From: Octopus vulgaris | Lineage: Eukaryota | Direction: 5' to 3' | Length of the DNA stretch: 64,000 bases | Assembly: GCA_951406725.2 (NCBI GenBank) | Contig: OX597814.1 | Coordinates: 124,496,001 to 124,560,000 of the forward strand | Shown: positions 652-61,860 of the stretch, in pieces | How positions within the stretch are numbered: position 1 is the first letter of the stretch | How the letters are laid out: the number at the start of each line of letters is the position of its first letter | The notes under the pieces: model-generated | What the model saw: only the letters and a program-made list of their open reading frames with translations | Databases searched by the model: none | Told to the model about the DNA's origin: nothing | Program-made: the position numbers and the translations under genes

Positions 652-1050
652 CCTTTCTACTAAAGGCACAATGCCTGAAGTTTTTTCGGCAGGGGACTAT
701 TCGATTACATCGACGCTAGTGTGTCACTGGTACTTAATTTATCAATCCCCATAAGGATGAAAGGCAAAGTCGACCTCGGCGGAATTTGAACTCAGAACGT
801 GACGACAGACGAAATACTAATTTCTTTACTGCCCAGATGGGGCTACACACAGAGGGGGCAAACAAGGACAGACAAACGGATTAAGTCGATTATATCGACA
901 CCAGTACGTAACTGGTACTTAATTTATCGACCCCGAAAGGATGAAACGCAAAGTCGACCTCGGCGGAATTTGAACTCAGAACGTAACGGCAGACGAAATA
1001 CGGCTACGCATTTCGCCCGGCATGCTAACGTTTCTGCCAGCTCGCCGCCT
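652..1050 (-). mobile_element. SINE family A (tRNA-like head, multimeric body)
   Basis: Reverse complement of the head aggcggcgagctggcagaaacgttagc, B-box-like gagttcaaattcc, body gtcgactttgcctttcatcc twice; adjacent (TAA)n. Confidence 0.9.
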
Positions 1051-1797: not shown

Positions 1798-2212
1798 AGG
1801 CGGCGCGCTGGCAGAAACGTTAGCACGCCGGGCGAAATGCTCTGCAGGATTTCGTCTGCCGTTACGTTCTGAGTTCAAATTCTGCCGAGGTCGACTTTGC
1901 CTTTCATCCTTTCGGGGTCGATAAATTAAGTACCAGTAACGCACTGGGGTCGATATAATCGACTTAATCCGTTTGTCTGTCCTTGTTAGTCCCCTCTGTG
2001 TTTAACCCCTTGTGGGTAGTTAAGAAATAGGTATTTCGTCTGCCATTACGTTCTGAGTTCAAATTCCGCCGAGGTCGACTTTGCCTTTCATCCTTTCAGG
2101 GTCGATTAAATAAGTACCAGTTACGCACTGGGGTCGATGTAATCGACTTAATCCGTTTGTCTATCCTTGTTTGTCCCCTCTGTGTTTAGCCCTTTGTGGG
2201 CAATAAAGAAAT
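1798..2212 (+). mobile_element. SINE family A, dimer
   Basis: Head plus two ~184-bp units (gagttcaaat at 1871 and 2055); ends gggcaataaagaaat. Confidence 0.92.
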
Positions 2213-4121: not shown

Positions 4122-4490
4122 AAGGCGGCGAGCTGGCAGAAACGTTAGCAGCGCCGGGCGAAATGCTTAGCGGTATTTCGTCTGCCGTTACGTTCTGAGT
4201 TCAAATTCCGCCGAGGTCGACTTTGCCTTTCATCCTTTCGGGGTCAATTAAATAAGTACCAGTTACGCACTGGGGTCGATATAATCGACTTAATCTGTTT
4301 GTCTTTCCTTGTTTGTCCCCTCTGTGTTTAGCCCCTTGTAGGTAGTAAAGAAATAGGTATTTCGCCTGTCTTTACATTTTAAGTTCAAATTCCGCCGAGG
4401 TCGACTTTGCCGATCATCCTTTCGGGGTCGATAAATTAAGTACCAGTTGCATACTGGGATCGATCTACTCGACCTCCCTCACCCCCCAAA
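4122..4490 (+). mobile_element. SINE family A, dimer with alternative tail
   Basis: Same head and body; the second unit ends in the ccctc...ccccaaa type tail. Confidence 0.9.
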
Positions 4491-4674
4491 TTATATATGT
4501 GTGTGTAATTTTTATGTTCTACTTGTTTCAGTCATTAGACTGCGGCCATAATGTGTTACAATTAAAAAACAATAATAAATAAGTATTGTGAATTTCTTTG
4601 ACTAAGCTCTTCAAGGCAATGCCCCAACATGGCTACAGTTAAATGACTAAACTTTCTTCGTGTGTTTGTTTGTT

Positions 4675-10747: not shown

Positions 10748-10823
<76 letters not shown>

Positions 10824-10885
10824 GTCATCTATCTACCTATCTATCTATCTATCTATCTATCTATCAATGTATCTATCTATCAATG

Positions 10886-10962
<77 letters not shown>

Positions 10963-11028
10963 GTCTGTCTGTCTGTCTCTCTGTCTATCTATCATCTATC
11001 TATCATCTATCTATCTATCTATCCATCT
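10748..11028 (+). repeat. (TATC)n/(TGTC)n array upstream of the LINE
   Basis: Direct reading. Confidence 0.95.
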
Positions 11029-11296
11029 ACGGACGTGCTGTCACTTCGGCTCCGAAGGTAATCGTTTATTTTGACTATTTATAGCCCATATTTTGTGTAC
11101 TTTTTTGTAAATAAGGTGTGTAAGGCACCCAACTTTCGTTTGAGTGCTTTTCCAAGGGAGGAATTCGCCCCTAGGGGCAGTTTCAACCCTATTTAATTTG
11201 TGTAATTTTCTTCTCGACATTTTGAAAATATCGAGAAATTGTATTGTAGAACGCTGGTCGCGTTCCTTTATCGACCAACATTTTCCTAGTCTGGAA

Positions 11297-13446
11297 ATGC
11301 TAGGAGAAGAAAAAAAGAACTCATGCACGCAAAGTGCAAACCTGAATGACATGGCAGTGAACGCTGCAACCACTTGCGATAACAGCACTGTCACCACCAC
11401 CACTAACAACAACAACGAGACTACTACTGCCACCACCACCGCCTCCACCACCACTACCACCACCGCCACCTCATCCACTACCTCAACTACCAACAACAAC
11501 AACAATAACAATGACAACAAGAATAACAACAATTGCGCCACCATTTCGACATCTGCTGCCACGGCTGTCTCTTCTGCCACTGACACCACCGCCAACACCA
11601 CCACCACCACCAACAACAACAATTGTTTACTCCAACACCAAGAACTGAAGGGAATAAACAAAAGACTGTGACCACCAAACAAATTGACAAAAGCTGCTCG
11701 AACACAGGAACAAACTATGCAAGTAATTTTCCACCCCTTCCTACTTGCACAATTAAACCAAATACACCGATTTTACTAACTGCAGCCAACAACAACATCA
11801 TCACCAGCAACAACAATAACAAAACAACAACAAATTTCGCCGAGGCGATAAAAGAAAAAAAGACAACAGTATATTTTACTGCACAGCAGATAAAAGATAC
11901 GAATATTTTAATAACGGAAGTAGATGGTATAGTAAAAATAAACATACCACAAGAAATATTAGAAAATGAAAAAAAGAACTATTATATATAAAATAATTAA
12001 TAAGAAAACAAAAAGTCCAGAGAAGGCTAACACAAGCAAAATCGAAAAATGCTTGAAACCCATCTGGAACTACAAAGAGTATGTGACCTGATGGAACAAG
12101 TTCGCACACATACAAGTGGTCTTCCACACTGAAGAGTTAGCAAGACGTTTCTCAACGCTAACTCTTCATTCAGATGAACTGCAACTAACACCAAGCTATC
12201 GTGGAACAGAAAGTGACTAAGATCACTTTAAACAATGTCCCAAAAATAGCGAACAATCTATGGCTAGTAAAGGCCTTATGTGTGAAAATGGAAGATTTCA
12301 CAATTTTAGAAACTACGGTCACGGAGCACAAAAACTGGGTGGGAAAAAAAGTAGAATTTCTACTACATATAAACCAAGATGACATAAAGAAAATACCCAC
12401 CCAGATATGTGTATCAGAAGACCACAAGTTGTATGTGGTCGTCGATGGCAGAAGACCACGTTGCTACATATGCGGCAGTGAGCATCACCTAAAAAAAGAT
12501 TGCAAATATGCCGCAAGAAAACAACAGCAACAACAACAGCAGCCGGAAAAAACAAAAAAGCCAGCTTTACTACCCACACCACAAATTGTACAAACAGGAC
12601 TAATCACAGAAAATAAATAAAAAAAACCTCACCAACCAAACAACCACACCAACTGCAGCAAGAACAGAAGCAACACCACCAACAACAACAACCAAGAATA
12701 AACCAACTCCCAAACCAAGGACATCTGCCAAAAAGACACTCATCGAAAATGAAGAAACAATTACTACTCCAAATCCCCACAAAATTGACACCCCAAACAA
12801 CACAACAATACCTACAATCACTCAAACACAAAATACCCACACCCCACCTCCAAAACCGCATACACCACAACCTAACGCTCACCAACCAACACCAACAACA
12901 AAATCAACACAGTCTACAATAGACCCCAATATTTTCCTTCTCCCAAGCTCTGATTCCTCTGATTTGTCATTAGACGAAGAAGACACAGAAGATTGGCAAA
13001 TAGCCACAGGGGGGAGAAGAAAAAGGGAAAAAAAAGAAAAGAAAAGATAACAAACAAAGCAGGAAGATTCACCACTCCTGAAACAAAAACATCCACAGAA
13101 AACAAAAACATCCACAGAAAACAAACACATCAACACAAACACACCATCATCAAACCCTCCAACGATGTTGATAGCCATAAACACAAACAACCACGACCTA
13201 ATGGAACACATTAGGTCAAACACCAACATAACTGAAAACGACATAAAAACAAATAACCACCCACGCACAACACCACCACAACACATTAAAATAATACACG
13301 TAACACAGAACACATACAGCACCCTGAAATCTCTTTACCCTGATGCAGTAGGGAGATTTCAAAAATATTCATCAAAGAAACTATATAAAAACCTCATGGA
13401 AGAAGACTGTGAGGTGAAAAACAAAGGACTTTCGAACAACAAATAA
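11297..13446 (+). pseudogene. LINE ORF1 (gag-like), frameshifted
   Basis: Successive fragments 11297-11671, 11623-11991, 12201-12620, 13165-13446; zinc knuckle CYICGSEHHLKKDC (CX2CX4HX4C); Thr/Asn/Pro/Lys low-complexity tracts. Confidence 0.8.
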
Positions 13447-13514
13447 CCTTTTCTCTCTCTCTTACCTTTTTTGCACTTTCTTTTCGTGTGTAAAACACAA
13501 TTTTTTATCGGAAC

Positions 13515-16500
13515 ATGCTCAGAATAGGCAGTATAAATGTATGTGGCTTGGGGTCGCCTTTGGAAACAAGGCTACCTGTTAAATGACATCAAGTCACTAA
13601 ATCTGAATATCATAGCCATCAGTGAGACCAGACTCCACAGCTCGCTGGCACTCCAGCACAGTTTCGGTACACATTTCAACATTTATTTTTCTCCGTGTCT
13701 ACCGAGAATGGGCGGAGGTGGCACCGCGCTGCTTCTCCGGAAGAGTCTGGATCTCAAAGTAAGAGCAATTTTCCCAGAACCGGAGGGTAGGCTGGTCGTT
13801 TTGGATGTCGATGGCAGCAATAAGTGTGCTTTTCGACTGATAGCAGTTTATGCTCCGTCCTTAACAGGCCGACCAGATTTCTTTCGACGTCTAGAGTCTT
13901 TCATGGGAACGTCTCGTCCTTTACTTTTAGTGGGGGATTGGAATGCCACCCTTGGACATGCATCTAGACTACGTGGGCAGAGATAGCAATAGAAGGGGAT
14001 GCGAATGCCTCAAAGACCTGCTCAGACGTTTCCAACTGTCTGACAGGTACCGACTGGACCACTCGAATGTGCCAATGTGGACATGGAGTAACCGCATCGG
14101 TTCGTCCAGATCATACTTAGATAGAGTATTCTGTAGGACAATAGATAAAAATAGTGTAGGTTGTCCACAAATTCATATAGTCAGTTACACAGATCACAAG
14201 TTTGTGACTTGTACACTTGACTTAGATAAGACACATAGGCAGGGTCCTGGTTACTGGAAACTGAACGCGTCTTTTACAGCACGACAGATTTACAGGGACC
14301 GGATCAGCACATTAGTTAAGAGAGCCTTGACGGGTACCATCATCAACAACAGATGGTGGTATGCCCTAAAAAAGCAATTAAAGCAGAATCAGTCAGATAC
14401 AGTAAAGCCCTAGCATTAGACCGAAATAGAATAGAGGGAGAATTAGTTAAGGTTTTAGAAGAGGCACTTAGAACTGGCATCGCGTCCAACGTGCTGGCGG
14501 CGAGATTGGCCCTCGACCAACACCTCAACGCCAATCACGAGGGATGCGTTGTCAGAGCTAGGATGCGTGCTCTGAGGAACGAAGGAGTTGGAGCCGCCCA
14601 AGAGGCCCGAGTGGTGGAGACGCAACGAGGCAACAGAGCCACCATCAAGTCTCTTATAGATGAACAGGGGCGCGAATTGCTCGAGCCTAAAAGGATGTGT
14701 GGGGCTTTTCAACAACACTTCACCCAACTGTTTGGGACAAGTGGTGGGTCAGAACGCAGAGTGGACTTTAGTGCCTACCTGCATGCCTTGCCACGACTCT
14801 CAGCAAGAGAGGTGGAGTCTTGTGAAAGGCCTATCACAGCTGCGGACGTACAGGATGCGATAGGGGTCTGCGCGAGAGACAAGTCACCAGGCTTGGATGG
14901 TCTGCCCTACGAACTTTATTGTCATATGCCAGACTTGTTTAGAGGCGTCTTGGCAGCTGTCTACTGCAACTGGCAACAAAACGGGAGTATTCCTGCTTTT
15001 GTAAAGCGAGGAGCAGTGGCACTGATTAAAAAAGACCGAAACAAGGGGGACGTCATAGATAATTTCAGGCCCATCACTCTGCTCAACGCAGATTTGAAAA
15101 TTTTGGCCAAGGTGTTAGCCGAGAGATTGGCGCTTGTCATCAAGAAACTAATCGACAAGGCGCAAATATGCGCCGTGCCGGGTAGAAGTATTCATGACAA
15201 CCTCCATCTGATGCGCTACATCATAGACAGGGTTGTTAAGAATCCTGGCATGGGTGGGGCGCTGATCAATTTGGATCAATCAAAAGCTTTCGATAGGGTA
15301 GACCATCACTACTTGGAGGCTGTCCTTAAAGCGGCTGGTTTCGGTCCAGTTTTCCGCGGTTGGATCGCTGCCTTATACAGCGGCATCCGCTCAGTAGTTC
15401 GCGTAAATGGTCATCTATCCAGACCTTTTAACATCATGCGTTCGGTTCGTCAGGGATGCCCCCTCTCATCGCTGCTGTATGTATTGACTCTTGAGCCACT
15501 ACTGCGGAAACTGGCGACGCTGAGGGACATCCCACGAGAGCTGGGATGCGGGAGGAGCGTGTCTGCATACGCGGATGACGTCACCGCCATAGTGTCGAGC
15601 TACCAGCACATCGAGCTGGTCGGCGAGACACTAAAAGAATACGAAGCGGTAACGGGAGCAAAAATTAACCGGGAAAAGTCAGTGGGCTTGCGGCTCGGCA
15701 CCTGGAGAAGCAAGCCCATGCTGTCCAACAGCGTCTCCATCGTGGGACGCTGGACGGACGGACCGGTTAAATTGCTCGGGGTCTGGTTCGGTCCGGACCT
15801 CCAAATGGAGAAGAACTGGAGCGAGATAACGACTAGGGTGGCTACTCTCACCCAGAAATGGGCTGAGAGAAAGCTATCCCTAAAAGGTCGGGCGGAGGTG
15901 GCGAACTCGTACATTGCATCCGTCATCGAGTATCGTCTGACCGTCGTGCCTTGTCCCGACCCTACCATCACCAAACTGGAACGTATACTCTTCCGCTTCT
16001 TGTGGAAGGGAAACGTTCCGATGGTTAGGCGATCCATTTGCTGTCAACACCCGCTAAATGGAGGGCTGGGCATGCCGTGGTTGATGATGCACAGACATGC
16101 GCTGAGACTGCGACATCTCCGGTGCTTCATAGACAACGGTGAACAGGTGTAGTCGCCTTTTGTGCGGCGCGCTTTCCCGCAGCTCGTCTCCTTGGACGAA
16201 CTACAGTCATGGATCAAGCAGAGACCGAGGCTAGGCGAATGGCACCGCGAGTGTCGCGTTGCTCTCAAGCAACTCTGCCGTCCGGGTTCGAACTTGTGCG
16301 ACTCCATCACAACAAAGGCATTCTATAGAGGATTAGTGGAGGGGAGGTGCGACGACGAACTCGGGTAGAGTCTGGGCGTCGACGAGGAACACCTGACCCG
16401 CCTGTTCAGGACAACTTTCGGGCCGGGACCTATGAACAATCACCAAAGATCCCTGGCCTGGCAGGTGTGGGACGAATCCGCCTATCGGCCGAGTCTGTCG

Positions 16501-16783
16501 TGAGAATTGCTCCGCCCCCTTCCCTCAACCGGGAAGGCAAGGTAGTTTTCATCGTACTGGTGGCCATGGTGAAAGAATGTGTGTGGTGGACCCGAGCGAA
16601 AGGATTAGAGACAAACACTTACCTCTCTGGCCAATCGCTCATCAACTTTTTCAAGTACCACTTGAAAAGGAAGGTGAGAATGGAGAGGGAAGTTTTGTCT
16701 CGCGAAAGATTAAAAAAAGATGGGTGAATGTTGCAAAGATGGTGCGTGCTAGTGACGAAACCATTTTGAGCATGATCCTGTAG
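13515..16783 (+). pseudogene. LINE ORF2: apurinic endonuclease + reverse transcriptase, with frameshifts and stops
   Basis: Start MLRIGSINV; APE motifs ISET, VYAP, GDWN, SYLDR, TDH; RT motifs KSPGLDG, FRPITLLNADLKI, LDQSKAFDRV, RQGCPLS, YADD; 599-aa open segment at 14353-16152. Confidence 0.93.
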
Positions 16784-17081
16784 ATCGTAAAAAAGAAAGA
16801 GAGAGAGCATTTTGCTCTCATGTGGTTATTTCCTCCCTGACTGAGGTTCCCGTGGTCTTTTCTGTAGGCTTTTCTTCCCACGGATGAACCCAATCTTGTT
16901 TTATCAATGTTTTTATCATTGTTTCTGTGATACACGATTTCTTTTCTTTTTTTTTCCTCCTCTCGATCCCTTTTATTGCAATCTTATATTTATTTTCTTT
17001 TTTTCCACCCTCGAAAAGAAAAGCTCTACATTTGTATTTGTCCCCTCTGTATTCAGCCCTGTGTGGCTAATAAAAGAAAGT

Positions 17082-17088
17082 TATCTAC

Positions 17089-17176
<88 letters not shown>

Positions 17177-17239
17177 TTGTCTGTCTATCTGTCTGTCTGT
17201 CTGTCTATCTATCATCTATCTATCATCTATCTATCTATC

Positions 17240-17315
<76 letters not shown>

Positions 17316-17336
17316 GTCTGTCTGTCTGTCTGTCTA
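17082..17336 (+). repeat. (TATC)n/(TGTC)n array downstream of the LINE
   Basis: Direct reading. Confidence 0.95.
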
Positions 17337-18589
17337 TTTACATAAAAATATATGCGAGTGGAGTAACTTATTGCTATGCATGCATGTGAATATGTGTATA
17401 TATTATGTGGGCGTGTTCTTTAGGTTTCCGTTGTAGCTGTATCTAATTATTTACTGCTACTGGCTAAATGTGTTGTTCATTCAAAATTTACAATATTCGA
17501 TAGAATATCCTATATTCTATATTTATATTTGAAGAATATATTTTTAAATGCGGTTACCGTTCCACGATAAACCTTAAACTTAGCGTTACTCCTCTCTCTT
17601 GTCTTAAATTCAGCTTCTTGCATTTCTGTGTCTTTCTACCATTTTCCTCCAAATATTTTCTCTTGTTCCTCCTTTCTTGTCCCTCACACCCTAAAATTCC
17701 GACTCTCACGTAAACTCTGCTCCTCTCTCTGCTCCTCACTCTTTCTCTTTTCGCTTACATCTTTACTCACTCACCAATATTTATACTTTAAACTCTTCTT
17801 TAGTGTAACTCATATTCTACACGACAACATTACTTTCTCACTCTCTGCGTATCAGTCTCCTTCTTTCTCTCTTTTCGTCATTCACTGACGAAACCAACGC
17901 CCGAAACTTTATATTTTAACGTTTCTCATGACAACTGAACTTAACTGAACTCTCCTCTGGAGTAATTGTAACCGGTGTAGATCATCAGAAGTTGATAGGA
18001 AGTTGATACCTGATTACATATGCATATACAAACATAAATCTATACGAGTGTATATAAGTGTGTGTATGGACATATGTATGCATAATATGCATGTATGTGT
18101 ATGTGTGTGTATTATAATGCATATATACATATATGCATTCATACATATGAATTTACATGCTTACATATGGCTTACTGTTGTACATATATTTTATTGTGAG
18201 ATATTTCTTTATGAAGATATATGATGATAACTATCCGCAACATTTATGCCTCTGGTATTAGACTCGCTCTCAAGTAAATAGTTATTCTTTTAATCGTTCG
18301 AATCAAAGAAATATTTTTTCATTGAAGGTAACTAGCAATACTTCATAGAAGCTTCGTTTCATCAGTTGAGAAGATTGCATTGCTACAAGTAACATGGCTA
18401 GACAACCTAATAATAACATACAACAACAGCAACAGCAGCGGTAGCAAGCAGCAGCCACGACGAACGAAAATATACCGAGCAGAAAATAAAAAAAGAAACC
18501 ATGTGCGTCTGGTGTTAGTGTGCGTGCCTGAAGTACATGCATACACACAAATATATGTACGTATATGTGTGTATGTGTGTGTGTGTGTA

Positions 18590-18873: not shown

Positions 18874-19825
18874 AAGTAGTTTTAGAGACAGAACCCCCCT
18901 CAACTCAATCAACACTGAAAGGTATTATACCCGACTGAGCCATAAAATATTAAATATGATACTATATCTATTCAGAATTCCATACTTTCCATTTTAAAGA
19001 CAACATGTGTTTCATGACAGCATGTCGGGTTTTTTTTTTAGATATAATGTCTCTAGTTTCAATACTCAATTAGATCGACGTACTCCCAATCTTCAGGTCT
19101 GGATTCTACACATTTATTACTCTATCTACATTCTATATGACTCTATGATGAGTGAAATAATTTGACTAAAAATTGTTAACATAATTTAACTTTACAAATT
19201 AAAGAATTAAAATAAAAATTAAAATAATGAATGAACCTTAAAAATTTAAGAAATAGAAAATAAAATTACCCCCCTTACATTGGAATTATCAAGTATGGAT
19301 TGTACGTTTTTTGCAAGATGTAGCCATGTTTAATTTTCGCAGGGAGGGAGCCACAAATAGATAAGTTAACATTCGTTTTGTTCATTATTTTAAATTTTAT
19401 TTCGTATTTTTTATTCGTATTTTTTATTCTCTTTTATTCCTTAAATTTTTGTTTCTTAAATTTTTAAGGTTCATTCATTATTTTTATTTTTATTTTTATT
19501 CATTAATTTGTAAAGTTGAATTATGTTGACGATTTTTAGTCAAATAATTTCAATCATCATAGAGTTATATAAAATGTAGATAAAGTAATAAATGTGTAGA
19601 ATCCAGACCTGAAGATTGGGAGTACGTCGCTCTAATTCAGTATTGAAACTAGAGACCTTATATCTCAACAATACCGACATACTGTCATGAAACACGTGTT
19701 GTCTTTAAAATAGAAAGTATGGGATACTGAATTGATATAGTATCATATTTAATATTTTATAGCTCGGTCGGGTATAATATCTTTCAATGTTAATTTAGTT
19801 GAGGATGGTTCTGTCTCTAAAACTA

Positions 19826-19828
<3 letters not shown>
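18874..19828. repeat. Long inverted repeat (arms ~18874-19260 and ~19447-19828)
   Basis: aagtagttttagagacagaacc pairs with ggttctgtctctaaaactactt; complementarity continues over ~385 bp; each arm carries CTGAAGA...GAAACTAG. Confidence 0.95.
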
Positions 19829-19863
<35 letters not shown>

Positions 19864-19864
<1 letters not shown>

Positions 19865-20222
19865 GGTTGTGTGGTGAGAACCTTGTTTACCAACCACATG
19901 GTTCCGGGTTCAATCACAGTGCGTTGTACATTGGGAAAGTGTCTTCTACTATAGCCTCGTGCCGACCAAAGTCTTGTGAGTGGATTTGGTAGACGGTAAC
20001 TGGGAGAAGCCTGTCGTATATGTACATATATATATATGTATATATTTGTGTGTCTGTGTTTGCACCGTCTCCACCACCACCATAGCTTGGAACCGATGCT
20101 GGTGTGTTGGAATACCGATGGAATAAGTAGTAGGCTTACCAAGAATAGGTTCTGGGGTCAATTTGTTCGACAAACGGTGGTGCCCCAGCATGGCCGCAGT
20201 CAAATGACTGAAACAAATAAAG
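19864..20222 (+). mobile_element. SINE family B (tRNA-like head, CORE-like segment, internal microsatellite)
   Basis: ggttgtgtggt...ccgggttcaatc...gggaaagtgtcttctactatagcctc...aatgactgaaacaaataaa. Confidence 0.85.
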
Positions 20223-20224
20223 GA

Positions 20225-20623
20225 ATATTTACTACTCTAGGCACAAGGGCCTGAAAATTTGGGGTAGGGGTCCAGTAGGTTAGATCGACCGGAGTACGCA
20301 ACTGGTACTTAATTTATCGACCCCGAAAGGATGAAAGGCAAAGACGATCTTGGTGAGATTTGAACTCCGAACGTAAAGACAGACGAAATACCTATTTCTT
20401 TACTACCCACGAGGGGCTAAACATAAAGGGGATGAACAAGGACAGACAGAGGGATTAAGTCGAGTATATCGACCCCAATGCGTAACTGGTACTTATTTAA
20501 TCAACCCCGAAAGATGAAAGGCAAAGTCGACCTCGGCGGAATTTGAACTCAGAACGTAGCGGCGGACGAAATACTGCTAAGCATTTCGCCCGGCGTGCTA
20601 ACGTTTCTGCCAGCTCGCCGCCT
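20225..20623 (-). mobile_element. SINE family A, dimer
   Basis: Reverse-complement head ending ctcgccgcct at ~20623; two body units. Confidence 0.9.
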
Positions 20624-30309: not shown

Positions 30310-31100
30310 CGTGGCACCTTGAGCAAATATCTATACTATAGCCTCGGCCCAAGCAAAACTATATGAGTAGATTTGGTAGATAGAAACTGAGATAAGGCGG
30401 CGAGTTGGCAAAAACGTTAGCACGCTGGGCGAAATGCGTAGCCGTATTTCGTCTGCCGTTACGTTCTGAGTTCAAATTCCGCCGAGGTCAACTTTATCTT
30501 TCATCCTTTCGGGGTCGATAAATTAAGTACCAGTTACGCATTGGGATCGATATAATCGACTTAATCCGTTTGCCTGTCCTTGTTTGTCCTCTCTGTGTTT
30601 AGCCCCTTGTGGGTAGTAAAGAAATAGGTATTTCGTCTGCCGTTACGTTCTGAGTTCAAATTCCGTCGAGGTCGACTTTGCCTTTCATCCTTTCGGGGTC
30701 GATTGAATAAGTACCAGTTATGCACTGGGATCGATGTAATCGACTTACTCCCTTTGTCTGTCCTTGTTTGTCCTCTCTATGTTTAGCCCCTTGTGGGCAA
30801 TAAAGAACTAAGAAATTGAAAGAAGCTCCTCGTACATATTTATATATGTGCGCGCGCATCCACGTGTCTGTATTTGTGTGTGTGCGTGTGTATCTATTTA
30901 TATATGTGTCTGTATTTGTCACCCCACCATCGCTTGTTGACAACCAATGCTGATGTGCTTATGTCCCTGTAACTTAACGGTTCGGTGAAAATGACCGATA
31001 GAATAAGTACTAGGCGCTCGATTTCTTCGACTAAAATCCTTTAAGATGGTTCTCCAGCATGGCCGACGTCAAATGGCTGAAACACGTGAAAGGTTAAAAG
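30310..31100 (+). mobile_element. SINE family B split by a SINE A dimer (30394-30810)
   Basis: Family B sequence stops at gaaactgaga (~30390) and resumes at gaaattgaaagaagc (~30812). Confidence 0.88.
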
Positions 31101-31889: not shown

Positions 31890-32082
31890 TGGCTGTGTGG
31901 TAAGTAGCTTACTTACGAACTACATGGTTCTGGGTTCAGTCCCACTGCGTGGCACCTTGGGCAAGTGTCTTCTACTATAGCCTCGGGCCGACCAAAGCCT
32001 TGTGAGTGGATTTGGTTGACGGAAACTGAAAGAAGCCCGTCGTATATATGTATGTATATGTGTATGTGTGTGTATATGTATG

Positions 32083-32149
<67 letters not shown>

Positions 32150-32355
32150 CTGTGTTTGTCCCCCCCCCCCAACATCGTTTGACAACAGATGCTGGTGTGT
32201 TTACGTCCCCGTGACTTAGCGGTTCGGCAAAAGAAACTGATAGAATAAGTACTAGGCTTCCAAAGAATAAGTCCTGGGGTCAATTTGCTCGACTACAGGC
32301 GGTGCTCCAGTATAGCCACAGTCAAATGACTGAAACAGGTAAAAGAGTAAAGAGA
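31890..32355 (+). mobile_element. SINE family B, well preserved
   Basis: tggctgtgtggtaag...gggttcagtccc...caccttgggcaagtg...(TA)n(TG)n...gactgaaacaggtaaaagagtaaagag. Confidence 0.92.
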
Positions 32356-32451: not shown

Positions 32452-33072
32452 TTCTACTCTAGGGTACAAGGCCCGAATTTTGGGGGAGGGGGCCAGTCGG
32501 TTAGTTCGACTACAGTACGCAGCTGGTACTTAATTCATTGTGCGTAACTGGTACTTATTTAATCGACTCCGAAAGGATAAAAGGCAAAGTCGATCGGCGG
32601 AATTTGAACTCAGAACGTAACGGCAGACGAAATACCTATTTCTTTACTACCTACAAGGGGCTAAACACAAAGGGGACAAACAAGGACAGACAAACGGATT
32701 AAGTCGATTATATCGACCCCAGTGCGTAACTGGTACTTAATTTATCGACCCCGAAAGGATGAAAGGCAAAGTCGACCTCGACGATATTTGAACTCAGAAC
32801 GTAACGGTAGACGAAATACGGCTACGCATTTGGCCCGGCGTGCTAACGTTTCTGCCAGCTCGCCGCCTTAATGCTCCTTTCTACTAAAGCCACAAGATCG
32901 GAAATTTTGTAGGAGTGGACAAGTCGATTAGATCAACCCCAGTGTTTCACTTGTACTTAATTTATCGACCTCGAAAGGATAAAAGACACGTGGAATTCAG
33001 AACGTAGCGGCAGACGAAATACTGCTAAGCATTGCGCCCGGTGTGCTAACGTTTCTGCCAGCTCACCGCCTT
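32452..33072 (-). mobile_element. Two adjacent SINE family A copies (32452-32869 and 32875-33072)
   Basis: Two reverse-complement heads (...ccagctcgccgcctt) with bodies. Confidence 0.88.
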
Positions 33073-35502: not shown

Positions 35503-35900
35503 ACTCTTTTACTTCTTTCAGCCATTTGACTGTGGCGATGCTGGAGTACCGCCTTTAGTCGAGCAAGTCGACCCCAGGACTTATTCTTTGTAAGCTTAGT
35601 ACTTATTCTATCGGACTCTTTTGCCGAACTGCTAAGTTACGGAGACGTAAACACACCAGCATCTGTTGTCAAACGATGCTGGGAGGACAAACATAGACAC
35701 AAAAACATATACATACACTTACATATATATATACATATATACGACGGGTTTCATTCAGTTTTCGTCTATCAAATCCACTTACAAAGCTTTGGTCGGCCCG
35801 AGGCTATAGTAGAAGACACATGCCCAAGGTGGTATGCAGTGGGATTGAACCCAGAACCATGTAGTTCGTAAGCAAGCTACTTACCACACAGTCACTTCTA
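35503..35900 (-). mobile_element. SINE family B
   Basis: Reverse complement matches the 31890-32355 copy along its length. Confidence 0.9.
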
Positions 35901-40371: not shown

Positions 40372-40882
40372 TTTTCTACTTTAGGAACAACGCCTGAAAT
40401 TTTGGAGGAAGAAGGAGGGGCAGTCGATTAGATCGACCCCAGTGCGCAACTGGTACTTAATTTATCGACTCCGAAAAGATGAAAGGCAAATTCGACCTCG
40501 GCGGAATTTCAACTCAGAACACAAAGCCAGACAAAATACCTATTTCTTTACTACCCACAAGGGGCTAAACACAGAGGGGACAAACAAGGACAGATTAAGT
40601 CGATTATATCGACCCCAGTGCGTAACTGGTATGTAGTTTATTTAAACGACCCCGAGAGGAAGAAAGGCAAAGTCGACCTCGGAGGAATTTCAACTCAGAA
40701 CGTAACGGCAGACGAAACACCGCTAAACATTTCGCCCAGCGTGCTAATGTTTCTTACTTCTTTATTGCCCACAAGGACAGACAAAGGGATTAAGTCGATT
40801 ACATCGACTCCAGTGCGTAACTGGTACTTAATTTATCGACCCTGAAAGGATGAAAGGCAAAGTCAACCTCGGCGGAATTTGA
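40372..40882 (-). mobile_element. SINE family A, rearranged multimer
   Basis: Three body units gaaaggcaaa.tc.acctcgg. Confidence 0.85.
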
Positions 40883-42110: not shown

Positions 42111-42525
42111 AGGCGGCGAGCTGGTAGAATCGTTAGCACGCCGGGCGAAATGCGTAGCCGTATTTCGTCTGCTGTTACGTTCTCAGTTCAAATTCCGCCG
42201 AGGTCGACTTTGCCTTTCATCCTTTCTGGGTCGATAAATTAAGCACTAGTTACACACTGGGGTAGATATAATCGACTTAATCCGTTTGTCTGTCCTTGTT
42301 TGTCCTCTCTGTGTTTAGCCCCTTGTGGGTAGTAAAGAAATAGGTATTTCGTCTGCTGCTACGTTCTGAGTTCAAATTCCGCCGAGGTCGACTTTGCCTT
42401 TCATCCTTTCGGGGTCGATTAAATAAGTACCAGTTACGCACTGGGGTCGATGTAATCGACTTACTCCCTTTGCCTGTCCTTGTTTGTCCCCGCTATGTTT
42501 AGCCCCTTGTGGGCAATAAAGAATT
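42111..42525 (+). mobile_element. SINE family A, dimer
   Basis: Head plus two units ending agccccttgtgggcaataaagaa. Confidence 0.92.
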
Positions 42526-43363
42526 AAATATCATAGAATGAGTTGGTTGATTATACAACTGTAACAGTGAAACGTCGATATGGACAAATAAGTCCATCTA
42601 ACTATGTCTCGTATTCTTTTTCTTGTTTCAGTCACTGGGCTGCGGTCATGATGATGGGGTACTGTTTTGAGAGGCTTAGTCGAACAATTTGATCCTAGTA
42701 GTTACATTTTTAAAGTCTGGCGCCTATTCTATCGGCCTCTATTGCCGAATTGCTAAGTAACAGGCTGAAAACAAACAAACAAACAGTGGTTGATGAGCAG
42801 TGTAGATAAAAACACTAACTCACACCATCGAATTTAAAGTCTTTCGACTTAAAACGAGCCGAAACTATGATGAGTCTGGTTTCCATGGCTGATGAGAGGA
42901 TTCCCATGTTTATTTGTCCATTGTTGGTTTACAATATTCGTTTCCAAGTTCCATTTCGATGTTTCATTACACATACACACATACATGCACACATACATAT
43001 CTCCACACACACACACACACACATACACACACACACATACACACACACGCATACACAAACACACACGCACATATAACACGCATACGCACACATATTTGAA
43101 AGTCTATGAAAATTACTTAATACAGATTTTGAAGTGTAAAGGTGATTTTTAAAAAAAAATAATTTCTTAAAAAAATGTTATGAAATCTTTTATGAAGATG
43201 ATACTAACCTCTTTTCGAAAGAAGTTTTTTTTCTAGTGTGTTATCGCTTTCGTTAACATTTTCAAACTCACGTGCTCTTAAAGTGGAAGTTATTACATAT
43301 ATATGTATCCGATATACACACATTTACATGTATACATATATATGTGTGTGCGTGTGTGAATGT

Positions 43364-48682: not shown

Positions 48683-49076
<394 letters not shown>

Positions 49077-50525: not shown

Positions 50526-51100
50526 AGGCGGCGAGCTGGCAGAATCCTTAGCACGCAGGGTAAAATGCTTAGCGCTATTTCGTCTGCCGCTACGTTCTGA
50601 GTTCAAATTCCGGCGAGGTCGACTTTGCTTTCACCCTTTCGGGGTCGATAAATTAAGTACCAGTTACGCACTGGGGTCGATATAATCGACTTAGTCCGTT
50701 GGTCTGTCCTTGTTTGTCCCCTCTGTGTTTAGCCCCTTGTGGGTAGTAAAGAAATAGGTATTTCGTCTGCCGTTACGTTCTGAGTTCAAATTCCGCCAAG
50801 GTCGACTTTGCCTTTCGTCCTTTCGGGCTCGATTAAATAAGAACCAGTTACGCACTGCGGTCGATGTAATCGATTTAATCCGTTTGTCTGTCCTTGTTTG
50901 TACTCTCTGTGTTTAGCCCCTTGTGGGTAGTAAAGAAATAGGTATTTCGTCCGTCTTTATGTTCAAATTTCGCCGAGGGCGACTTTACCTTTCATCTTTT
51001 GGGGATCAATAAAATAAGTGTCAGCTGGGGCACTGAGGTCGATGTAATCAATTTAATCCCCTCTCTGGAATTGCTGGCTTTGTGCCAAAATTTGAAACCA
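50526..51100 (+). mobile_element. SINE family A, trimer
   Basis: Head plus three units (~183-bp period); the last unit has the alternative tail ggaattgctggctttgtgccaaaatttgaaacc. Confidence 0.92.
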
Positions 51101-51670: not shown

Positions 51671-52016
51671 AGAGGTATTGGTATCCAGAAGACCCAAGGT
51701 GAAAAGTAAGGCTATGTAAGTGCTATGGCATGACCATAGTTAAACTCTCGGTTCGATAATAATACGAGCGAGGAGTCTAATGCGGGTCTTGTTTGAGCAT
51801 TTTTATGTTAAATAAAATGAGACAACAAAGCCAAGGGTGTGTGGAATTTTCAGGATATTCATATTACTTAAACTCACACACACACACACACACACACACA
51901 ACACTCTCACTCTCACACACACAGAGACAAGTGTTGCTGTGTGGCCAGCAGTTTGCTTCCTAACCACATGGTTCCAGGTTCAGTCCTCGGAACAGCCAAA
52001 GGTTTGGTTCACCCTG

Positions 52017-52063
<47 letters not shown>

Positions 52064-52116
52064 TTGTGCGTGTGTGTGTGTGTGTGTCTGTATGTGTGTG
52101 TGTGTATGTGTGTGTG

Positions 52117-52149
<33 letters not shown>

Positions 52150-52151
<2 letters not shown>

Positions 52152-52306
52152 GACGGGCTTCTTTTAGTTTCCGTCTACCAAATCTACTCAAAGCTTTGGT
52201 CGTCGTGAAGCTAGAGTAGAGGACACTTGCTCAAGATTCCACGCAGTGGGACTGAACCCGGAAACATGTGGTTCGGAAGCAAACTTCTTGCCACACAGCC
52301 ACGCCT
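52150..52306 (-). mobile_element. SINE family B, 5' half
   Basis: acgacgggcttctttt...gtgggactgaacccgg...ccacacagccacgcc. Confidence 0.85.
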
Positions 52307-53182
52307 GTCTCTATGTCTATGTATGTATGTTTATATATATGTATGTGTGTATGTATGTGTCGTATTTTTGTGTGTATTTGTGTCCAAGTAATGCACATCA
52401 TTTCACGTTGTTCAAGTCTGCTCAGGTAAAGAAGGAATAACAGCAGGCAACTGATGCAGCCTACCCCTCCATCCAGCTGTCACAGCCACGAGATCCCGTT
52501 GGCTAAAAGTGGGGCACGGCCCAAGAGAGTATCTGTGTTTGCTTGCGACAAGATAAGATACATAAAGCAATTAGCGGTAGCGAATTACAAGCTCACAGGT
52601 CATACCCGCTTAAAAGTTACAACTAAGCTTTTTATTGATAGTGAAAAGTAAATTGTTAAATTGAACACTTAGTCATCTTATAAATTTTTCTTATTATATT
52701 ATATTAACTTTTCAAATAATAATATATTGTTACATTAGCACTTGTATAATTAAAATGATTTCTTTTTTGTGAGCAATCTTTTCAGAAAAGCCAAACAATT
52801 GATTAACTTACACGGCTTTGCCAGCCCTTTCCTCTACTATCCACCGCTCTCTGTCACTATTTCTTCTTTACAACTCTTTACATCTCATACTTTACATATA
52901 TTGAGAAAGTAAAACAACATATGAGGGAGAGAGGGGAAGAGAGAGAGAGAAAGAGAGAAGAGAAAGAATGGGGATGAGACAAAAGAATGGGTGAAAGAAT
53001 GTGGAAAAGAAGGGAAGAGAAGGAAAAATAAAATGTGAAGGTGGGGGAGGGGTGTTATGAGAGAGAAAAGCGTTCGCAGAAGAGAAATTGAAATAGGATA
53101 AAGTGTGTGGAAAAGAAATTAGAGAGTAACAAGTAAAATAAAAAAGAAAAACGGATGTATGTGAGAGAGAGATAGAAAGTCA

Positions 53183-55095: not shown

Positions 55096-55503
55096 CTCTT
55101 TGCTCTTTTGATCTTTTACTAGTTTCAGTCATTTGAACTGTGGCCATGCTGGAGCACCGCCTTTTAGTCGGAGAAATCGAGCCCTGGAATTATTCGTTGT
55201 AAGTTTAGTACTTATTCGATTGGTCTCTTTTTGTCGAACTGCTAGGTTACGGGGGCGTAAACACACCAAAATCGGTGAAGGGACAAGCACAGACACAAAC
55301 ACACACGCGTGCGCACACACACACACATGTATATATACACACGACAGGCTTCTTTCAGTTTCTGTCTACCAAATCCACTCACAATGTTGTGGTCGGCCCG
55401 AGGCTATAGTAAAAGACGCTTGTACAAGGTGCTACGCAGTGGGACATGACCCGAAGCCTTGTGCTTGGGTAGCAAGCTTCTTTCCACACAGTCACGCCTG
55501 CAC
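55096..55503 (-). mobile_element. SINE family B
   Basis: Reverse-complement full-length similarity. Confidence 0.88.
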
Positions 55504-55637
55504 CTATATATATATATATATATATACATATATAAAGTTAATCCAAACATGAAAACACAGAGAAAACACAACATGAGGACGTGGAACAAGTATAATGTTA
55601 TTGGACGCTCAGGAAAGGAGAGAAAGAAGAAGTATTT

Positions 55638-61225: not shown

Positions 61226-61860
61226 GTGGTTGAGTGGTAAGAAATTTACTTCCCAGCTACATGGTTTCGAGATCGGTCAACTACGCAGCGCCTTGAACAA
61301 ATGTCTTCTATTATAGCTTCGAGTCAACCAAAACTTTGTGAGTAGATTTGGTAGACGAAAACTGTGCAGAAGACCGTCATGTGTGTGTGTGTGTGTGTGT
61401 ATGTGTGTGTGTGTGTGTGCGTGCGTGTGTGTGTGTGTGTGCATGTGTTTATGAGTATTTATGTTTGTCCTCCAATATCGCTTACCAACCCATGTTAAAT
61501 TGTTTCTGTATTCGTAGATTTGGTGGTTCGGCCAGGCAAAAAAGAATATGTACCAGACTTTATAAATATATAAATACCAAAGTCGCCTGGCCGACTAAAC
61601 CCGTCAAGGAGTTGCTCCAGCGTAGCCGCAGTTCAATGACCAGAACAAGCAAAACATAAAAGATAAATGAGAATGAAAAATTCTTTTATCACTGTGTGGA
61701 GTGGCTGTGTGGTAAGTAGCTTGCTTACCAACCACATGGTTCCTGGTTCAGTCCCACTGCGTGGCACCTTGGGCAAGTGTCATCTACTATAGCCTCGGGC
61801 CGACCAAAGCCTTGTGAATAGATTTGGTAGACGGAAACTGAAAGAAGCTCGTCGTATATA
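61226..61860 (+). mobile_element. Two SINE family B copies (old 61226-61668; young 5' half 61698-61860)
   Basis: Heads gtggt.gagtggtaag and gtggctgtgtggtaag, with family B bodies. Confidence 0.82.

Follow-up and report, generated by a model that had tools for sequence, protein, structure and literature searches.

An abundant octopus SINE shares its 3' tail with a clade of L1-group, Tx1-like LINEs

Does the long interspersed element (LINE) of an octopus locus supply the enzyme that copies the short interspersed element (SINE) scattered around it? The locus is a stretch of 64,000 nucleotides from Octopus vulgaris (GenBank assembly GCA_951406725.2, contig OX597814.1, positions 124,496,001 to 124,560,000 of the forward strand; hereafter the window), in which one LINE of the L1 group and many units of a SINE carry similar tails. 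The original prediction, made from the letters of the window, held that this SINE is mobilised by a Tx1-lineage reverse transcriptase (RT) that recognises a 3' stem-loop, with partner and parasite in the same window. We consider it likely that the SINE tail was captured from the LINE clade to which the window copy belongs and that the SINE is mobilised by that clade. The sharing of the tail supports the prediction at the level of the lineage, and recognition of the stem-loop is what we infer.

A tail common to the SINE and a LINE clade

The tail of the LINE (17037-17079) agreed at 37 of 43 positions with the SINE unit at 2170-2211, at 35 with that at 4312-4353 and at 36 with that at 50713-50754, giving a common stretch of 43 nt with 81-86% identity (E=7e-8 within the window). 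Allowing up to two mismatches, the initial 14 nt of the tail were found 16 times in the window, in 15 SINE units and once in the LINE, against a chance expectation of 0.30 and a maximum of two in 100 shuffles. The family of the window LINE, termed F1, was sampled in the genome (2.80 Gb in 227 contigs) using the 477 nt upstream of the tail as query; 40 of 3,457 candidates were scored and 30 copies were fetched, and every one of them (29 and the window copy) carried the tail. The predicted common 3' end was thus borne out by both the alignments and the copies. The original prediction had named, as grounds for its own rejection, LINE copies lacking the tail; none was found among the 30, which rules out a SINE fragment having landed at the end of a single LINE copy. 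That the match is due to chance or to such a fragment is extremely improbable: it spans only 43 nt and is rich in pyrimidines, but the E value, the 30 copies and the homologous tails in families with 61-74% identity in open reading frame 2 (ORF2) all speak against it. Some details needed correction, as one of the SINE units begins at 4312 and not at 4313, and many units described as ending in the tail, including those at 4312 and 50713, lie inside dimers or trimers.

The predicted abundance of the SINE was confirmed. One 42-nt string of its tail had 17,100 exact matches in the genome, and 40 evenly spaced 10-kb stretches contained 28 tail matches, 26 of them in SINEs and two in LINEs of the clade. 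Homology to the SINE monomer made up 11,532 of the 400,000 sampled bases (~3%), and extrapolation from this sample gives roughly 1.8 x 10^5 tail units genome-wide.

Sister families were sought with the zf-RVT profile, and from 30 loci and 20 longer stretches (150 of 25,802 candidates were listed) families F2 to F9 were recovered, all with related tails and none with poly(A). Those with a long ORF2 showed 61-74% identity to the RT region of the window copy, and many of their ORF2s, 1,125-1,148 aa long, were open; frames of this kind were present in F2, F3, F4, F5 and F7, and in none of six scanned F1 copies or the window copy; F2 (1,505 candidates; loci L079 and L370-L389) had one open ORF2 of 1,135 aa. 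The original prediction had called for a phylogeny of the RT, and in a rapidly built tree with 54 RT rows, from which F9 was absent, F1 to F8 and an Argonauta protein formed one clade (SH-aLRT 99), with F1 and F2 (support 91) apart from F3 to F8 (96). Argonauta also provided the nearest named protein relative among the homologues listed, and no protein named Tx1 was present in 120 listed homologues, 10 clusters or the atlas rows. Because the tree contained no named Tx1 reference (nor a named L1 protein), the label "Tx1-like" is drawn from architecture and targeting only. Membership in the L1 group was upheld by the Pfam endonuclease and RT domains of ORF2, accompanied by zf-RVT in intact sisters, and by solved structures, among which L1 ORF2p matched the window RT best (E ~1e-49, compared with only 1e-18 for R2); the Tx1 part of the claim stands as a resemblance. 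A CCHC zinc knuckle in ORF1 is a feature of Tx1 clade LINEs, and PF00098 was found above its cut-off in the ORF1 of L061 and L366 and below it in the window copy and L224. The tail belongs to the whole octopod clade of L1-group, Tx1-like LINE families.

The tail was also found on a non-autonomous element of ~1.75 kb that contains ORF1 only (L417:632-1810, minus strand, with kin in L392-L423; 65 search candidates). Its 393-aa ORF was 33% identical to the ORF1 of F3, and an adjoining ORF2 of the clade was found in none of 12 stretches. Copies of this element have target-site duplications, and the sequences that flank several of them downstream resemble one another, suggesting that a particular target is favoured.

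Other LINE clades ended differently. CR1-like and RTE-like ends formed other hairpins followed by (ATT)n or (ATAG)n repeats, in a comparison that covered 30 of 150 listed RT matches, mostly of one CR1-like family. It could be argued that the SINE bears a fossil tail of the clade and is moved by CR1, RTE or R4/Dong, which are listed as abundant and recently active in O. vulgaris in Table 1 of PMC13282606, with the R4/Dong and L2 tails lying outside our sample. We regard this as very unlikely: the sampled CR1-like and RTE-like tails matched the SINE at the level of shuffled sequence, so that the better match to another clade that would have undone the original prediction was not seen, the SINE ends and duplications match those of F3, and both non-SINE tail matches in the 400-kb systematic sample belonged to this clade.

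The predicted stem-loop and its possible role

In folds of single tails, UCU/AGA and, past a mismatch, UGU/AUA repeatedly formed an outer stem around an inner hairpin, the arms of which were paired though family-specific (AGCC/GGCT, GCCC/GGGT, TCCT/AGGA, AAGATT/AATCTT, AATC/GATT, GATC/GATC, AACC/GGTT and AGGC/GCCT). For 14 LINE-type tails, individual p-values were 0.013-0.31. Both hairpins of the original prediction exist, as AGCC/GGCT in the LINE and GCCC/GGGY in the SINE; the SINE arm given as GGGC holds for one subtype, while the other has GGGT and a G-U pair, and the hairpin regarded as terminal is present but forms only the inner part of a longer predicted stem-loop (Table 1). When the named structure was placed on 22 aligned tails, 86% of the cells were paired and 9 two-sided changes were counted, whereas slid controls gave 44-50% pairing and none of 500 shuffles scored as high. 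The covariation sought in the hairpin is suggested by these two-sided changes, but RNAalifold gave no consensus. On this modelling, all clade tails are predicted to end in a stem-loop with compensatory changes in the inner hairpin.

The tail might instead have been kept for its AAUAAA polyadenylation signal or for RNA stability, with relaxed enzymes allowing any member of the clade to move the SINE without the hairpin. AATAAA is present in most tails, folding energies are weak and no RNAalifold consensus emerged, and mammalian L1, the nearest relative with a solved structure, is described as relaxed in the consulted part of PMC3747384. On the other hand, copies end at a fixed position a few nucleotides past the stem and without poly(A), AATAAA is replaced by AGTAAA or AGTAATAAA in one abundant SINE subtype and some F4 copies while the pairing is kept, the inner hairpins change on both sides, and the tail has been retained by the ORF1-only derivative. 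Taken together, we find this explanation improbable.

Insertion signatures and the family that moves the SINE

If the clade moves the SINE, the next question is which of its members does so, and here the junctions are informative. Among F1 copies (30 from the top of a list of 9,609 exact F1-type tails, every one of the 30 on contig C1) TATC repeats followed 25 of the 30 at the 3' end and preceded 14 of the 17 whose 5' junction was visible, and all seven full-length copies with a visible 5' flank (nine were fetched) had (TATC)n there. F1 often stood in tandem with related subfamilies within one (TATC)n array (L003, L010, L011, L013, L018, L022, L027 and L029). F2 ended in (ATT)n at 20 of 20 3' ends and at four of seven 5' junctions; the F2 copy L079 immediately follows the (ATT)n with which a CR1-like copy (L203) ends. 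For the SINE, 57 elements with head and tail A were taken from all fetched sequence, and the 33 that did not run into another unit (24 did) were kept. Target-site duplications of 10-22 bp were present in 23 of these, compared with 0-1 of 33 in the control, 13 of the 23 began 3-4 nt past the tail, and none of the 33 ends ran into (TATC)2. F3 insertions were dispersed and had a duplication at 16 of 25 loci, of which two were discarded as repeat artefacts; the remaining 14 measured 11-24 bp, and 12 of them began at an offset of 3-4 nt. The SINE and F3 are hence alike in stop point, in duplication length and in the mixed sequence of their targets, a signature that the SINE does not share with F1, and the target-site comparison called for at the outset went against the window family. 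The tails without poly(A) are shown to be fixed in the LINE families, with SINE and F3 copies stopping at the same place.

The tails were further compared by mean scores against 20 of the 26 SINE tails from the systematic sample. Over 70 nt, F4 reached 47-54, F3b 50-52, F6 51, the F1 variant L086 47.5 and the window F1 tail 41, while shuffled LINE tails gave 11-18, CR1-like tails 10 and RTE-like tails 13. F3b led over the last 28 nt with 41-45 (window F1: 21.5), and F6 led over the upstream part with 48-50 versus 23. The SINE shares the CUUGU loop and the terminus with F3 and F4 and the upstream 28 nt with F6, in place of the CUGUGU loop of the window F1 copy, and the donor and driver of the main burst was therefore likely an older member of that branch, not found intact. 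That the clade captured and mobilised the SINE, with the driver on the dispersed side of F3, F4 and F6 rather than with F1, is the version that we favour, though by no means firmly.

The alternative that F1 itself is the mobiliser deserves attention, since its preference for TATC could arise mostly from pairing between a UAUC run-on of its RNA and the target, in which case insertion elsewhere would be expected of a SINE whose run-on differs. F1-type tails outnumber all others by a wide margin, variant L086 scores near the best, five of 30 F1 3' ends lie outside TATC arrays, SINE junctions show template-linked microhomology, and an older F1-related copy (77-81% amino acid identity) was present in the systematic sample. 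This is nonetheless unlikely in view of the contrast between the TATC of F1 junctions and the 33 SINE ends, the different loop, the score of F1 over the last 28 nt (21.5-26 versus 41-45 for F3) and the age of the sampled F1 copies, which are much younger than the SINE. Non-CpG divergence was 3.9% for the SINE (26 monomers) and 0.5% for F1 (21 of 30 copies long enough), so that, as sampled, the two were not concurrent. That partner and parasite lie in the same window is doubtful given the TATC targeting, the loop, the better-matching sisters, the younger copies and the broken state of the window copy.

A number of results weigh against mobilisation by the clade through this tail, or against its dispersed families as the driver. 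No LINE carrying the whole SINE tail was matched in the genome or found in 1.75 Mb of fetched loci, and the short variant of the tail seen in L038 is unique in the genome. Tails of F3, F4 and F6 number 32, 50 and ~57, compared with 9,609 for F1, in counts made with patterns of differing strictness. The sampled F3 (0.5%; 17 of 30 copies) and F4 (1.5%; 25 of 30) are likewise younger than the SINE, and F6 is older and heterogeneous; because of these divergences, no sampled young family (F1, F3 or F4) fits the main SINE burst, although the selection of LINE copies by exact patterns biases these samples towards young ones. Folding z-scores of single tails are modest (-2.6 to +0.8), RNAalifold gave no consensus pairs on the tail alignment, and the shuffle count is not a probability, because the structure was chosen from these same related sequences. 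Finally, no dedicated SINE transcript was visible in RNA reads, which covered the SINE equally on both strands with no pile-up of ends and carry no information on Pol III transcription.

A course of events that accommodates the data is that the last 45-70 nt of the SINE were likely captured from the 3' tail of the clade and likely serve as a handle by which an RT of the clade, probably from a dispersed-inserting sister family, copies the SINE. ORF2p would bind the predicted stem-loop, then nick the DNA and prime ~4 nt downstream of the stem-loop, that is, at a fixed distance past the stem, with 3-5 bases of the target end pairing with the RNA beyond the tail and aiding priming. In the SINE, the tail subtype predicted the bases that follow (7/12 vs 0/12 in both directions, p=0.005), and the bases after the two subtypes match the two multimer junctions. 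In copies continuing with AGG, these bases lay inside the duplication in four of eight cases, which means that the target already had them. Such priming by pairing keeps F1 in play, because its TATC preference could be partly RNA-guided; a literature search found no paper on read-through pairing. Two of 30 F3 copies, L290 and L311 (L350, L351), pass without interruption into a SINE head, at a point that coincides with the junction in one SINE dimer, by insertion or template switch.

Known systems, the SINE and the window

Tail sharing is a known mechanism, and what is new here is the animal L1-group partner, the absence of poly(A) and the panel of families. Among LINEs, the L1 group is the one known to depart from this mechanism (PMC3747384): a catalogue of 58 SINE-LINE pairs contains three with L1 tails, all plant or algal, none animal and none Tx1 (PMC3747384; PMC3472496, in the part consulted). 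In the stringent pairs of L2, CR1 and RTE (UnaSINE1/UnaL2, ZfL2, bivalve) there is likewise a shared tail of 35-70 nt with a predicted stem-loop and compensatory changes (PMC3747384), and in the accessible parts of PMC4824008 and PMC11481361 one SINE body occurs with exchanged tails, as here. For L2 LINEs, both loop-specific and stem recognition are described in what we consulted of PMC4176376. The octopus case differs in its L1-group partner, in a tail A that lacks a terminal tandem repeat or poly(A), and in being sequence-based. The closest parallels in the sections seen of PMC3747384 and PMC3472496 are ZmSINE2 and ZmSINE3 with LINE1-1_ZM and SINEX-3_CR with L1-1_CR, which have an L1-clade partner, a tail of ~45-80 nt and a compensatory hairpin; the host here, by contrast, is an animal and the LINE lineage Tx1-like.

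A SINE moved by Tx1 elements has also been inferred for crocodilian SINEU and Tx1-Mar (Kojima 2015, PMC4494074). As described in the portion consulted, that link is a shared target preference, with no LINE bearing the SINEU-1 3' end and with U1/U2-derived heads, whereas the octopus SINE has a tRNA-like head and is linked to its LINE clade by a common tail. The same portion reports target-sequence preference in many Tx1 members, which in the octopod clade is seen as TATC in F1 and ATT in F2, the insertions of F3 being dispersed. In their microsatellite targeting F1 and F2 resemble some Tx1 families, namely Kibi with (TC)n, Koshi with (TTC)n and those of crocodilians with (TTCC)n/(TTTC)n, but the repeat units differ; a (TATC)n unit is not among the Tx1 targets in the consulted portion of PMC4494074. 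The ORF1-only element has the design of HAL1, the ORF1-only derivatives of the L1 clade covered by the part seen of PMC5786205, but derives from a Tx1-like clade and has kept the stem-loop tail.

Mollusc SINE partners named in the consulted parts of PMC11481361, PMC4824008 and PMC4758252 are CR1, CR1-Zenon, L2 and Nimb, and octopus SINE classes and L1-Tx1 are reported without a pairing in those of PMC8967140, PMC9115989 and PMC13282606. A published animal SINE with an L1- or Tx1-derived tail, or this very pair, was not found in a search outside which lay Repbase, Dfam, SINEBase and the 1994 and 2015 octopus papers, any of which could record the pair. The SINE has very probably been catalogued already under one of the octopus names OR1, "tRNA-Deu", "tRNA-Core" or "Twhin". 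We take "Twhin" to be the name of an octopus SINE, and a literature search for it gave unrelated papers.

The consulted part of PMC3747384 asks, as an open question, whether the ancestor of the L1 group already had strict 3' recognition that mammals later lost, and an animal L1-group clade with a conserved tail, no poly(A), many intact ORF2s and varied loops and targets would make it testable by exchanging loops and enzymes. The broadest reading, which we put forward tentatively, is that an animal L1-group lineage with strict, poly(A)-independent stem-loop recognition drives both a SINE of ~10^5 units with two tail types and an ORF1-only parasite, and finds its targets partly through RNA pairing past the hairpin. 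If true, this would be among the largest invertebrate SINE expansions and the first recorded case of an animal SINE paired through an L1/Tx1 tail, and it would offer a naturally varied set of loops and targets in elements whose ORF2s are still open; it would also name the engine of a SINE that covers ~3% of the sampled genome, for which the octopus papers, in the parts consulted, name no partner.

The SINE monomer of ~230 nt consists of a tRNA-like head, a central domain and a tail, and often occurs as a dimer or trimer. The head was matched by neither ARAGORN nor Rfam (0 matches each); motifs resembling A and B boxes were seen by eye only, against a consensus, and the head at 4123-4212 folds with paired ends and one long hairpin (z=-3.2), not as a standard cloverleaf. 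The central domain may resemble that of the Deu/Nin-DC or Meta SINE superfamily. A motif search for this domain in the supplements of PMC4824008 and PMC4758252, file 1 of each excepted, gave no informative match. Half or more of the words of the SINE were present in 15 sequencing runs under six organism labels. A second tail, B, sometimes ends the multimers, being the last unit of A+B dimers, and also occurs in monomers; across all loci it is followed by (ATT)n in 11 of 24 cases. Its hairpin is identical to the one in the ORF1-only element, so that tail B, like tail A, leads back to this LINE clade. In L391, another LINE of the clade is inserted in a tail-B-like SINE.

The window copy of F1 is dead, the domains of its ORF1 and ORF2 being all in pieces (Table 1) and ~165 nt deleted.

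Table 1. Positions of the LINE, the SINE copies and related features in the window
Feature	Position	Strand	Basis or remarks
Full-length but broken L1-group, Tx1-like LINE, family F1	11029..17080	+	siblings share 5' start, 94-97% alignment; domains
5' (TATC)n array flanking the F1 LINE	10748..11028	+	direct reading; also in 7/7 full-length siblings with visible 5' flank
ORF1 fragment with CCHC zinc knuckle (ORF1 split into several pieces)	12189..12620	+	PF00098 E=0.0032, below curated cut-off
ORF2 apurinic-type endonuclease region, two frames	13537..14413	+	PF03372 E=2.7e-9 over 13537-13986
ORF2 RT region, 610 aa open frame	14320..16152	+	PF00078 E=9e-31; solved-structure matches
Site of ~165 nt deletion relative to siblings, near C-terminal zinc-binding region	16458..16464	+	split alignments
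LINE 3' tail common to SINE, without poly(A)	17037..17080	+	predicted stem-loop 17046-17077, inner hairpin 17055-17068
3' (TATC)n array after the F1 LINE	17081..17340	+	direct reading
SINE dimer, two tail-A units	1798..2212	+	16-bp target-site duplication at 1781-1796 and 2213-2228
SINE: tRNA-like head, central domain, tail-A unit (4312-4353), second unit with different tail	4123..4473	+	
SINE dimer, two tail-A units	30395..30810	+	
SINE dimer, two tail-A units, 12-bp duplication	42111..42526	+	
SINE monomer, tail A, 13-bp duplication	48683..48914	-	beside (GATA)n array, orientation opposite to the target of the LINE
SINE multimer, two tail-A units (50713, 50897) and partial third unit	50526..51059	+	
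Second SINE tail (B), hairpin AGGC/GCCT	4440-4500	+	
Second SINE tail (B), hairpin AGGC/GCCT	20274-20308, 32500-32554, 40400-40456, 690-733	-	

Elsewhere in the clade, F7 and F5 (L064-L067, L069, L070, L073 and L075) have an identical junction sequence of 16-20 bp at separate loci, which suggests fixed, non-microsatellite targets. Some zf-RVT matches on contig C2 are spaced ~5.4 kb apart, suggesting tandem arrays. In the fish Coilia grayii (P0113 and P0114 clusters), relatives of the RT have gene numbers that follow one another, which suggests target-specific elements arranged in tandem. Another repeat family, probably a further SINE, is also abundant in the window; it bears no relation to tail A and was detected via translations and weak BLAST matches (31920-32292, 19795-20157, 35530-35871, 51872-52314, 55112-55552 and 61277-61785).
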